DNA from: Octopus vulgaris
Taxonomy: Eukaryota
Reading direction: 5' to 3'
Assembly (NCBI GenBank): GCA_951406725.2
Contig: OX597814.1
Location: 114,576,001 to 114,640,000 of the forward strand
Length of the DNA stretch: 64,000 bases
Position numbers and translations under genes: made by a program. Below the pieces are notes generated by a model that saw only the letters and a list, made by a program, of their open reading frames with translations, searched no databases and was not told the DNA's origin. Numbering within the stretch: position 1 is the first letter of the stretch; the number at the start of each line of letters is the position of its first letter. Below, piece by piece: positions 4,263-50,391 of this stretch.

Positions 4263-4698
4263 TGATATATATGTACGTATGTATGTGTGTATGTATGTAT
4301 GCATGTATGCATGTATGTATGTATGCATGTATGTATGTATATATGTATGTATATATGTATGGCAGGTCATATATGTATGTATATATGTATATATGTATAT
4401 ATGTATATAATTAAAATCACAATAAGGGTGAAAAAAATTGAATATTAATTAATAACATCAATTTAAAACACCAAGTGGCCTAGCGTATAGAAAGACTGGG
4501 ATACAGTAAAAATTATTAATATAAGTAATAAGAGAAAGACCACATGTGGTCACTCTAACGCTAGATATAGATCCGCAAAGGGAATCCACCACTAAAGAAT
4601 TGTTCTCAAGCATTAATTCAACACGCCAAGAATGTAAGCGAGCAGGACAAATGAAAAATAACGAAAAAATAGATTAAATAGATTATATTTTTTGATAT

Positions 4699-4774
4699 AC
4701 TCTACTGAAGATTCGAAAATGATTATGTAAGTAAAATTACACAATCTGTTAACGATGAAACAATTGTATAGAGT
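4699..4774 (+). ncRNA. Type I hammerhead ribozyme (copy 1)
   Basis: ACUCUA [CUGAAGA] long stem II (UCG/CGA, GAUU/AAUC, UGUAA/UUACA) [GAAA] CAAUUG UA^ UAGAGU. Cleavage triplet GUA, predicted cut after 4768. Confidence 0.85.
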
Positions 4775-5228
4775 TAATCTCTATTTTTTCGTTATTTTTC
4801 ATTTGTCCTGCTCGCTTACATTCTTGGCGTGTTGAATTAATGCTTGAGAACAATTCTTTAGTGGTGGATTCCCTTTGCGGATCTATATCTAGCGTTAGAG
4901 TGACCACATGTGGTCCCTCTCTTATTACTTGTATTAATAATTTTTAATGTATCCCAGTCTTTTTATACGCTAGGCCACTTGGTGTTTTAAATTGATGTTA
5001 TTAATTAATATTCAATTTTTTTCACCCTTATTGTGATTTTAATTATAAATTAATATGTTCTCAAACCGGCAGTAAATTACTGGGGTAGTATTTACATCCG
5101 GGTTTTTTCAACGCGCCAGAATGAGGATATTTGAACGTAACTGCAAATATAATCGGCTGTGCCGTTCGCCTTTGCTCGGCTTCGTGTGGATTTTGGCGTT
5201 CGGTTCAGCAAATTATATTTTTTGATAT

Positions 5229-5304
5229 ACTCTACTGAAGATTCGAAAATGATTATGTAGGTAAAATTACACAATCTATTAACGATGAAACAATTGTATA
5301 GAGT
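5229..5304 (+). ncRNA. Type I hammerhead ribozyme (copy 2)
   Basis: Same fold as copy 1; the A>G change in stem II keeps pairing as G-U. Predicted cut after 5298. Confidence 0.85.
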
Positions 5305-5469
5305 TAATCTATTTTTTCGTTATTTTTCATTTGTCCTGCTCGCTTACATTCTTGGCGTGTTGAATTAATGCTTGAGAACAATTCTTTAGTGGTGGATTCC
5401 CTTTGCGGATCTATATCTAGCGTTAGAGTGACCACATGTGGTCTCTCTCTTATTACTTGTATATATATG

Positions 5470-5503
<34 letters not shown>

Positions 5504-5546
5504 TGTATGTATGTATGTATGTATGTATGTATGTATGTATGTATGT

Positions 5547-8149: not shown

Positions 8150-8564
8150 TATTTCTTTATTGCCCACAAGGGGCTAAATATAGAGGGTACAAACGAGGGT
8201 AGACAAAGGGATTAAGTCGATTACATCGACCCCAGTGCGTAACTGGTTCTTATTTTATCGACCGCGAAGGATGAAGGGTAAAGTCGACCTCGACGGAATT
8301 TGAACTCAGAACGTAAAGACAGACGAAATACCTATTTCTTTACTACCCACAAGGGGCTAAACACAGAGGGGACAAACAAGAACAAACAAACGGATTAAGT
8401 CGATTATAGCAACCCCAGCGCGTAACTGGTACTTAATTTAGCGACCCCGAAAGGATGACAGGCAAAGTCGACCTCGGCGGAATTTGAACTCAGAACGTAA
8501 CGGCAGACGAAATACCGCTATCCATTTCGCCCGGCGTGCTAACGTTTCTGCCAGCTCACCTCCT
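8150..8564 (-). mobile_element. tRNA-derived SINE, family A (dimeric body)
   Basis: Matches other copies (15527, 29811, 49706, 50392, 58339); B-box-like GAGTTCAAATTCC; conserved core GCCTTTCATCCTTTCGGGGTCGAT. Confidence 0.9.
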
Positions 8565-15526: not shown

Positions 15527-15941
15527 TATTTCTTTATTGCCCGCAGGGGGTTAAACATAGAGGGGAAAAACAAGAATAGACAAAGGGATTAAATCGATTA
15601 CATCGACCCCAGTGCGTAACTGGTACTTATTTAATCGACTCCGAAATGATGAAAGGCAAAGTCGACCTTGGCGGAATTTGAACTCAGAACGTAACGGCAG
15701 ACAAAATACCTATTTCTTTACTACCCACAAGGGACTAAACACAGAGAAGACAAACAAGGACAGACAAACGGATAAATCGATTATATCGACCCCAGTGCGT
15801 AACTGGTACTTATTTAATCGACCCCGAAAGGATGAAAGGCAAAGTCGATCTCGGCGGAATTTGAACTCAGAACGTAACGGCAGACGAAATACGGCTACGC
15901 ATTTCGCCCGGCGTGCTAGCGTTTCTGCCAGCACGCCGTCT
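15527..15941 (-). mobile_element. SINE family A (dimeric)
   Basis: High similarity to 8150-8564. Confidence 0.92.
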
Positions 15942-47547: not shown

Positions 47548-47694
47548 GTATGGTAGATAAGTTCAGTAAAAATTTAGATTCAGATGAATATGGTACTTAA
47601 GTTGAATGCACCAGAATTTAGTATGGTATTATCCGTACAATTTAAAATGAGGTGATTATAATAAAAAATAACCAACAAGGATATCCAGAGGTAA

Positions 47695-47781
47695 TGCAGT
47701 ACAATCGTTTCATGCGACTCCATTTAATTGAACAATGCAAACATTAAATCAATTTAAAATGTAGAGCAATCTTCAGCTGCA
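47695..47781 (-). ncRNA. Intact type I hammerhead ribozyme in a Penelope-like fragment
   Basis: Minus strand: UGCAG [CUGAAGA] U UGC..CAUUU..AAUUGA../..UCAAUU AAAUG..GCA U [GAAA] CGAUUG UA^ CUGCA. Confidence 0.8.
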
Positions 47782-49705
47782 CAAAAAATATAGAATTTAA
47801 TTAAATTCTAAGTACTCATTAGTATAATTTTATCTAAAATCCCAAGAGGATAAGGAGAGAGACAAAGAACATGTTTTGTCTATTCCTTGTTAAACGCCTA
47901 CATATTCGGGGACGAGTAAGTACGGTAATTAATTTCACTTCTCAAAATTCTCCTACGCTTGACATGCATTCCGCCACCTACTGCACGTTCACTCTTTTCT
48001 GCTAAAATAATCTTTCTTTTATTGACTTCCTTCACGGTGTTGCAGCATCTTGTGCCTCTAACCTAACAACTTGATTTTTCTTTTACAAGACGACGATCTA
48101 TTATTATTCCAATGATCCTTTGTTTCTTATTATAATAGCACATACTGAATAATTATGTGAACTCCATATGTTGTCCGGCAAGGAGCAGATGAGCTGCTGG
48201 GTTTTATTTCAGATGAAATTGTCATAATCTTCAATAAAATTACACTGGCTCTCTATATAGCAATCCGTTATGAAAAAGAACTATTCAAAAGCAGTATTTT
48301 TTTAATTTCTAATTTATATTTCAAACAAACATCATTTTAAAGTATTATTTCAAATATTTTTAAAAACTACCATTCCATGTGTTATACAAAATTCAAATTG
48401 TATATCTCTGAAGAGCAGAATAGTAATCAATAAATGCTTATCAATATAGGATTTCATTATAGGAACAACACTTCTGTAAAACGAGAGTAAGATACTTTAA
48501 AAACTTAATTCAAAACTTTTAAACTGTCGTATACATTATATATTTATACTTTTACATATTTACATATATTTTTATACATATTTATATTTTTAATACAACA
48601 ATTATTTTACACACGTATATAACTTTCAGAAGAATTTTTTAATATTAATTTCCTGATATCAATAATAATATATTATAAAATATATCGCTCTTTAATAGTA
48701 TTAATACTTTGAGATACAATAGAGCACTCAATATAAATTCAGCATATAATATTCTCATTGAATATATTTAACTAAAGATTTATATAGATATATAGTTGTA
48801 CAAGGTCACTTAACATACATGCATGAATATATAGTTGTTTCAGACAATAAGGAAATCAACGCCGTAAGCTATTTATATATGTAATGTAAAACTATAGTTG
48901 TTTGCAACACGAGGGTACTATTTCACATTTTTTTGTTTTCTTGAAGAGCAATTGCACGCGTTCTTGTATATATATGAATGAATATATATATATGTATGTA
49001 TGTATTTGTGCATATATATGTATATGTAATATCTATATTTATATACATATTTATAAACATACATATATAAAATATACATACATACATTGAATTATATCAT
49101 GCTAATATATTGTCTATTTTCTATTGACATGTTAAGCACATACCGGATATTTCAGTACAGAATGTACTGAAATATCTGTTATATATAGTAAAATTGTATG
49201 GCAGTTTTTTTCCAATTTTTCCATATTTCTGCGGATTTTTTTTATGAAGTGGACCGAACGATCTGATGGAATGTATTGTCATTAAAATCTTGTCGTCCTC
49301 AAGTGAATGCTTATTTAATCGGAATCTTCTAACATCTGAGGAACCAGTTATTGATATATAATTTAATATAATATAATATAATATAATATAATATAATATA
49401 ATATAATATAATATAATATAATATTGTAATATAATTTAATATTTCTGTCCTCTTTCTCTCTGTATCCATATATATACACACTCAGATCGATTCCAGTATA
49501 TATTTTTTAAAGTTTGGCATTTGGCCTGTCGACTTCATGCACCGACCCACTTAGTACGGAGACGTAAACAAGCCAACCAGTTATCAAGCAATATAGAATA
49601 TGGGAGGGAAATAGAGGCAAAAATCAGCCAAATGCATGCGCGTGGCCGTATATATAAACAATTATATAGTAGAAGACCTATTTTATTGTATGATGTTTGC
49701 ATATT

Positions 49706-50187
49706 TATTTCTTTATTGCCCACAGGGGGCTAAACATAGAGGGGACAAACAGGGAAAAACAAAGGGATTAAGTCGATTATATCGAGCCCAGTGCGTAACT
49801 GGTACTTAATTAATCGACCCCGAAAGGATGAAAGGCAAAGTCGACCTCGGCGGAATTTGAACTCAGAACGTAACGGCAGACGAAATACCGCACAGCATTT
49901 CGCCCGGCGTGCTAACGATTCAGCCAGCTCACCGCCTTCTTAAAGAAGAAATACCTATTTCTTTACTACCCACAAGGGGCTAAACACAGAGGGGACAAAC
50001 AAGGACAGACAAACGGATTAAGTCGATTATATCGACCCCAGAGCGTAACTGGTACTTGATTAATCGACCCCGAAAGGATGAAAGGCAAAGTTAACCTCGG
50101 CGGAATTTGAACTCAGAACGTAACGGCAGACGAAATACCGCACAGCATTTCGCCCGGCGTGCTAACGTTTTTGCTAGCTCGCCGCCT
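49706..50187 (-). mobile_element. Two tandem SINE family A units
   Basis: Two complete heads (ending 49937 and 50187). Confidence 0.92.
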
Positions 50188-50391
50188 TTGATGTTTGCAT
50201 ATTGTATGATGTTTTGTGTTGGATATTTTGCTCCGCGGATCGGAACAGCGAAATTGGATTGCAAAGGGCTCAATGATGTTACATCACTTGTCTGAAGAGA
50301 TATATAAATATTCATGTGGATACAGTAATTCACATCTATACACGAGGGTGGGTATATGAATATATTCATGAATCGATATATTTGTATAGAA

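Follow-up and report, generated by a model that had tools for sequence, protein, structure and literature searches.

The insertion described here, together with its flanks, occupies positions 4266-5546 of a 64,000-nt window of the Octopus vulgaris genome (the window is the whole stretch of DNA that was analysed, and plain coordinates refer to it). Its parts follow each other in the order microsatellite, inverted arm (4408-4677), 4 bases, direct run (4682-5459) and microsatellite, with the direct run comprising 1.47 units of a 530-nt repeat. The features are:

4266..4407, no strand: left (TA)/(TATG)n microsatellite, the insertion target
4408..4677, minus strand: inverted, 5'-truncated arm with the long end (unit position 364), lacking the ribozyme
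4682..5211, plus strand: full 530-nt unit, used as the reference unit u
4699..4774, plus strand: hammerhead 1, type I, core at 4705, U·U at 10.1/11.1, predicted cut after 4768
4769..5298, plus strand: cut-to-cut monomer, predicted only, 530 nt, 34% GC, 64% paired
4897..4920, plus strand: bulged hairpin, 11 nt before the short end, including the palindrome noted earlier
4932..5045, plus strand: 114-nt tail between the two fixed end sites, after 4931 (short) and after 5045 (long)
5212..5459, plus strand: partial second unit that stops at the short end (unit position 250)
5229..5304, plus strand: hammerhead 2, core at 5235, predicted cut after 5298
5460..5546, no strand: right (TA)/(TATG)n microsatellite

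Further copies of the bulged hairpin are found at 5425-5448 and, inverted, at 4533-4556. The inverted arm that the first-pass annotation had placed before the unit is indeed there, though devoid of a ribozyme, and is the ordinary second arm of an insertion of a Penelope-like element (PLE). The region between the hammerheads is non-coding, as had been claimed: with the unit joined to itself, the longest stop-free frame spans 72 aa. The ATG-initiated ORFs over 4400-5470 are short, several of them extending into the microsatellite, and the 530-nt element lacks the ORF combining reverse transcriptase (RT) and GIY-YIG domains by which an autonomous PLE is recognised. Elsewhere in the window, a related U·U hammerhead (core at 47776) is embedded in the 3' end of another element (47548-47830, minus strand), which has a tail of roughly 110 nt and next to which no adjoining PLE ORF was found, and a SINE-like repeat is present as head-to-tail dimers with periods of 183-250 nt (8150-8516, 15527-15892 and 49706-50188).

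The two hammerheads, which had been correctly located on the same strand 530 nt apart, share the core CUGAAGA...GAAA, a GUA cut triplet and a 6-bp stem I (positions are given in the customary hammerhead numbering). They had been described as intact, and the type I layout is complete, but both are non-canonical, with a U·U closing stem II: this stem opens with the U10.1·U11.1 mismatch, followed by 3 bp, an internal loop and a hairpin. Moreover, the hammerhead fold is not the local minimum (-9.0 vs -11.8 kcal/mol), and no match to the Rfam hammerhead families was obtained in the window at the gathering score. The previously reported change of a stem II pair from A-U to G-U is present (A at 4730, G at 5260), as is the palindromic stem III (8 nt including flanks), which self-pairs at -6.4 kcal/mol and thus suits the dimer mode described for hammerheads of this kind (Cervera 2014). 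Stems starting with U10.1·U11.1 occur in nature, and no other mismatch is tolerated better there (Perreault 2011). In vitro, PLE hammerheads show weak activity (Cervera 2014), and 8/9 Xenopus retrozyme dimers are reported to be uncut (Li et al. 2026, 10.64898/2026.07.22.740005).

The 530-nt monomer is predicted to fold strongly (z = -8.97, equalled by 0 of 100 shuffles), with a similar value for the reverse strand (z = -8.6), and combines low GC content with high self-pairing, as non-LTR retrozymes do. Two of the three spacer stems proposed earlier belong to the predicted fold, whereas CAGTAA/TTACTG is absent from it. At the GTAAGT motif of stem II, no splice joint was seen in contigs from sequencing runs that we guessed to be RNA.

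Across the family to which this insertion belongs, 3' ends fall at two sites, unit positions 250 and 364, located 163 and 277 nt past the cut; at both, TA-like bases come next in the element and (TA)n comes next in the genome. A short end is paired with a long one in 38 of the 50 two-armed loci and an end is clipped in the other 12, with no locus pairing two ends of the same kind, so that insertions with both ends intact carry one end of each kind in 38/38 cases. The 30 single-armed loci include 15 short, 13 long and 2 other ends, and one further locus is complex. The 5' ends coincide with the cut site (unit positions 86-90) in only 2 of 147 cases, about the chance level; hence the genomic element is not delimited by the ribozyme, and the notion of ribozyme-defined 5' ends, along with the earlier claim that the hammerheads define the element, was abandoned. 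Ten of the 147 5' truncation or inversion points lie within unit positions 147-151, possibly an RT stop, a microhomology site or an RNA start.

The combination of a partial tandem, an inverted 5'-truncated arm and a tail at one end only, which the family displays, is the anatomy described for PLE insertions (Craig 2021, PMC8557442), in which the tail corresponds to the distance separating two internal RT start sites (Frangieh 2024, PMC11167929). We infer that the fixed end sites after 4931 and 5045 are such start sites. The short end is preceded by a covarying hairpin in both the 530-nt family and a sister family with a 493-nt unit (see below), and the long end only by a weak 4-bp hairpin; in L285, an autonomous element discussed below, a hairpin precedes the long end only.

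A 21-nt word from the hammerhead has 118 exact matches in the genome vs 0 for the control, and the family was mapped at at least 81 distinct loci, the one in the window included. These loci were picked by likeness to the unit or by the 21-nt word, which biases the map toward hammerhead-bearing copies, and 18 of the 118 word matches plus a few others fall outside it. Most of the mapped loci are 88-97% identical to the reference unit, and in 31 of the 81 a single-strand run exceeds one unit, reaching at most 1156 nt (2.2 units). At none of the 81 does the element continue from its 5' end, on the same strand, into a PLE ORF; a PLE-protein match lies nearby in 15, away from the 5' end of the element in 14 and abutting it on the opposite strand in one (L128). 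There are also non-coding colinear relatives at 69-88% identity, which indicate that the lineage is old and has kept its fold without an ORF. It probably began as a deletion derivative of a PLE.

Several individual loci show peculiarities of their own. The whole two-armed insertion at L109 (G000:C13) is locally triplicated with a 594-nt period; at L129:1519-7045, the two arms of one insertion of the family are separated by sequence that resembles an LTR retrotransposon and contains long open frames; and L256:2540-3260 (minus strand) is an older non-coding, partial-tandem relative with a decayed hammerhead and a TA tract in common with a Hydra arm. A signature of RNA editing was sought in the 530-nt family and rejected, given that A>G changes are not in excess over T>C, whether shared (29 v 53) or private (30 v 49).

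A looser hammerhead pattern yielded 358 genomic matches, distributed over several families, and none for the reversed control. Among 83 distinct hammerheads from the fetched loci, stem I pairs 1-5 are kept in 80, 80, 79, 74 and 72, and stem II pairs 2-4 in 79, 80 and 71, with compensatory pair types and counts above the maximum of 500 shuffles, although the shuffles ignore relatedness, so that the counts, scored at positions that the pattern left free, are inflated. Stem I pair 6 (67/83) is within the shuffle range. Pair types vary between families (U-A, C-G and G-C at one position), and, at position 10.1/11.1, 68 of the 83 have U·U and 15 have A-U, both being allowed by the pattern. Within the 530-nt family, the core is 97.7% conserved compared to 94.7% for the whole unit, with position 7 free. 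At U4, 11 of the 78 family hammerheads have C, as do all sister cores scored; this U4C replacement lowers hammerhead activity in vitro (Perreault 2011). Taken together, the pattern of conservation suggests that the ribozyme is under selection.

The best candidate for the mobilising enzyme belongs to the Hydra clade of PLEs, which inserts into (TA)n and has an octopus member, Hydra-1_Obim (Craig et al. 2021, PMC8557442). Families that share the 3' half of the window's hammerhead led us to ORFs with a CxCx5C linker; 19,740 Hydra-type candidates were found at first look, of which 150 were scored. One locus, L285 (G000:C6:134009400-134016400), contains an open 981-aa frame with RWK, DKT, CxCx5C, CxxC and CxH, the diagnostic features of the Hydra clade (Craig 2021, PMC8557442). 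By these motifs and a by-eye comparison with the alignment in the supplement of that paper, L285 is classified as an intact young Hydra-clade PLE. The Hydra protein has no match in Pfam or PDB. With its long Asn-rich inserts and a 3' UTR of about 1.5 kb, L285 far exceeds the length of <3 kb stated for Hydra elements (Craig 2021).

The relatives of L285 end in (TA)n, either 35-37 or about 149-155 nt past the cut, which corresponds to a tail of about 114-118 nt, and 8 of the 9 two-armed loci with both ends visible have one end of each kind. The 530-nt unit and the autonomous Hydra elements thus agree in the (TA)n target, the tail length and the rule of one short and one long end, and have the 3' half of the hammerhead in common, all of which makes a Hydra enzyme the likely mobiliser; the link is one of signature, and descent was not seen. 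The alignment between the unit and the L285 terminal repeat or UTR is no better than that of shuffles, and comparison with 80 Hydra-linked and 50 GIY-YIG loci, a sample from thousands of candidates, revealed no direct parent. The first-pass annotation had proposed mobilisation by a Penelope RT and a search for an autonomous element with matching ends. The PLE machinery holds, with the likely clade being Hydra rather than Penelope/Poseidon or Neptune; Hydra PLEs with a like tail and end rule do exist, but none of the 80 Hydra-linked loci provides an alignable parent.

Other partners fared less well. The GIY-YIG matches are mostly of the Neptune type (linker CxxxxCxxC); the first 30 GIY-YIG loci have no sequence in common with the unit by blastn, nor do the next 20, which were compared by their hammerheads. 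One Neptune family (L131) also has a U·U hammerhead, so this feature is not Hydra-specific; its tail, measured by eye, is about 30-35 nt. Neptune was rejected as the partner given the short tail and the lack of anything in common with the unit, and Naiad, considered in view of the long stem II and (TA)n target seen here, was dropped once the same hammerhead type led to the Hydra ORFs. A chimeric insertion was considered at L128, where a Hydra ORF fragment stands head to head with the unit. This was rejected in favour of an older fossil, since the closest relatives of the fragment show 65-82% identity (about 70% in most cases), compared with 88% for the unit there. At L365, a 75-nt tail-like match is located downstream of an old Hydra element, with another repeat in between. 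A young 781-aa Neptune-type family (L027, L032) seems, by eye, to have a U3-A8 hammerhead variant at its 3' end and repeated CCAAT/CRE-like boxes in its UTR.

The sister family (L330-L349; for example, L333:931-4552 and L330:2295-5141) has a 493-nt unit that is colinear with the 530-nt unit (339 of 445 aligned bases identical). It is younger, with copies about 98% identical, and a 19-nt word from it has 109 exact matches vs 1 for the control. Of the 33 sister loci examined, 20 are two-armed, and 19 of these combine a short and a long end. Arrays reach 7.1 units within a single two-armed insertion, and unit junctions are seamless, with no cluster of indels at one site. The five units of L330 are 0-2 bases apart and differ by 7-10 bases from most other arrays and by 3 from one; L331, L334 and L302 have their own variants in each unit. 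In the sister arrays of 4.5-5.6 units, all units carry array-private variants, and haplotypes are mostly array-private. The units of L333, the longest array, are up to 12 bases apart, and those at its 3' end have many A>G and T>C changes common to alternate units, perhaps through either template editing or later local duplication. Very young sister loci, 0-1 differences apart, already hold 1.7-3.4 units.

In the 530-nt family, the divergence between tandem copies of the same locus is 3.1% (36 pairs, including several from one triplicated locus) and that between the two arms 3.2% (62 pairs), compared with 8.8% between loci, and recurrent differences between upstream and downstream copies are limited to single sites. 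The low divergence within loci, free of recurrent differences, indicates that the copies were alike at insertion. In contigs from the runs guessed to be RNA, the 530-nt unit is covered in fragments, and those spanning 5260 carry A instead of the window's G and so derive from other copies or alleles. For the sister unit, 2 of 4 such runs, from different studies, contain a 523-nt contig (493+30), which we take to be a closed cycle; tandem transcripts or DNA give the same, and we do not count it as evidence. Similarly, a 5298-to-4769 junction has no diagnostic value alone, as tandem copies in the genome produce the same sequence; a read across it would be diagnostic only when carrying locus-private variants. 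In the window these are G at 5260 and A at 5278 in copy 2 and a TC duplication at 4778-4781 in copy 1, an order in which copy 2 joins onto copy 1 being possible only in a circle from this locus.

We favour, with a probability of about 0.8, the reading that the locus is a two-armed insertion of a non-coding 530-nt family, mobilised in trans by a Hydra-clade enzyme and probably derived from a ribozyme-cut circular monomer. The cycle would start with transcription of a copy longer than one unit across both hammerheads, which are predicted to pair via the palindromic stem III and to cut slowly after 4768 and 5298, perhaps with the help of a protein. The monomer would then be ligated into a circle, and such a circular RNA stage seems to us slightly likelier to exist than not. 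Judging from the ends, the enzyme would nick both (TA)n strands and prime two cDNAs inside the RNA, at unit positions 250 and 364. The cDNAs, which in the anatomy of the loci span 0.1-2.2 units (up to 7 in the sister family), would be joined head to head, and the outcome would be a direct repeat, an inverted arm and a one-sided 114-nt tail. Rolling round a circle has been suggested for PLEs (Cervera 2014), and the array-private variants in every sister unit fit rolling-circle copying; the divergent units of L333 are not explained by one circle. Tentatively, and at somewhat less than even odds, the arrays could be the footprint of rolling-circle reverse transcription, in which the Hydra enzyme primes twice, 114 nt apart, once per strand, and continues for up to seven rounds.

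The circle could be dispensed with if the Hydra enzyme copied an uncut, linear read-through template and jumped between templates, the hammerhead being slow, protein-gated or a binding signal. In Anolis, hammerhead mutants of a PLE still insert and no RNA ends are found at the cut, cleavage being dispensable for insertion and the main template being uncut RNA (Frangieh 2024), and the non-canonical core features, the 5' ends that do not pile up at the cut and the mixed units of L333 all agree with such a course. However, read-through alone can only shorten arrays, and the longest run among the 81 loci is 2.2 units; furthermore, the seamless sister junctions without a one-site indel cluster, and the conservation of catalytic positions while position 7 varies, are at odds with it. 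We regard copying without a circle as rather unlikely.

Still less probable, in our view, is the model favoured by Li et al. 2026, under which the copies would be solo pLTRs left behind by a PLE and amplified in place through unequal crossover once inserted. Local expansion also yields array-private variants, and it would account for the triplication at L109 and for the variants common to alternate units in L333, but it does not sit well with the same ends and >1-unit structure at 31 of 81 dispersed loci, none of which leads into an ORF, with the multiple units already present at the nearly identical sister loci, or with the persistence of colinear non-coding units over 73-96% identity. The last candidate is that a coding Penelope element underwent a single internal deletion here and kept only inactive remnants of its ribozymes. 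It was named at the outset as what genome-wide copies might reveal, and it draws on the lack of an Rfam match and on a hammerhead that is not the minimum fold. Given the seamless unit at dozens of loci of several age classes (81 mapped, 31 with tandems) and the stem covariation, this candidate fails and merits hardly any credence.

By its sequence alone, with cleavage and circular RNA being predictions here, the octopus element is to be classed as a member of a known group, the non-LTR retrozymes or non-autonomous PLEs, that is already known in other animals; non-LTR retrozymes have been argued to be non-autonomous PLE derivatives (Li 2026). Like those of other metazoans (Cervera and de la Pena 2020, PMC7229834; Li et al. 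2026), it is a non-coding tandem unit, dispersed as monomers to multimers, with one type I hammerhead per unit, recurring in two or more consecutive units, albeit as a non-canonical variant, a GC content below 45%, strong self-pairing and PLEs alongside. The metazoan retrozymes are about 170-400 nt long, a descriptive rather than strict range, and have canonical hammerheads, whereas the unit here is 530 nt, with U·U and a long stem II. The octopus family also differs in its low copy number (hundreds), partial tandems, two-armed insertions and fixed ends.

Hydra-clade C-terminal EN+ PLEs (Craig 2021) share with it the (TA)n target, a hammerhead in the terminal repeat, the partial tandem, the inverted arm and the one-end tail, and those of the octopus genome also have the tail of ~114 nt and the 3' half of the hammerhead, but the octopus unit has no ORF, and no alignable parent was found. 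Its tail is about three times the 30-40 bp given for the clade, and the hammerhead listed for Hydra-1_Obim is a different one (Craig 2021). The Poseidon PLE of Anolis (Frangieh et al. 2024, PMC11167929) resembles the family in its two internal RT start sites, optional tail and weak hammerhead, but it is autonomous and short-tailed, and the available text does not report strict use of one site per arm. The non-autonomous Chlamys elements such as MRC1 (Craig 2021) are likewise PLE derivatives with pLTRs and head-to-tail copies; canonical hammerheads, however, are missing from most Chlamys elements, and the non-autonomous members as a rule match the 3' end of an autonomous family.

Searches of the open-access literature listed no cephalopod retrozyme, and octopus is absent from the main text of the 2020 and 2026 retrozyme papers. 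The squid genome paper reports 235 Rfam hammerheads, and the Octopus vulgaris repeat paper reports Penelope families, with non-autonomous ones and ribozymes unmentioned. A tail of about 114 nt with a strict one-short-one-long rule, or a retrozyme tied to a PLE clade via insertion anatomy, was not found in the portions of the literature examined (further sources consulted: PMC4209133, PMC3088659, PMC6155905, PMC13282606 and PMC6962438).

With the class already known, the locus alone comes as no surprise. What mobilises animal retrozymes, and how PLEs rebuild their tandem terminal repeats, are open questions, and the mobiliser has so far been argued from co-occurrence and pLTR similarity in the sources available. 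Here, a single PLE clade is indicated by the insertion anatomy, namely target, tail length and the one-short-one-long rule, and the same genome contains both an intact young enzyme and a 0.5-kb RNA substrate. Neither Rfam nor canonical descriptors capture the long tail or the U·U hammerhead with its long stem II. The younger 493-nt sister is a better test object than the family in the window. If the arrays are the footprint of rolling-circle reverse transcription by a Hydra enzyme, the enzyme behind the mobility of an animal retrozyme would be identified, and the way in which PLEs regenerate their tandem repeats would become apparent.
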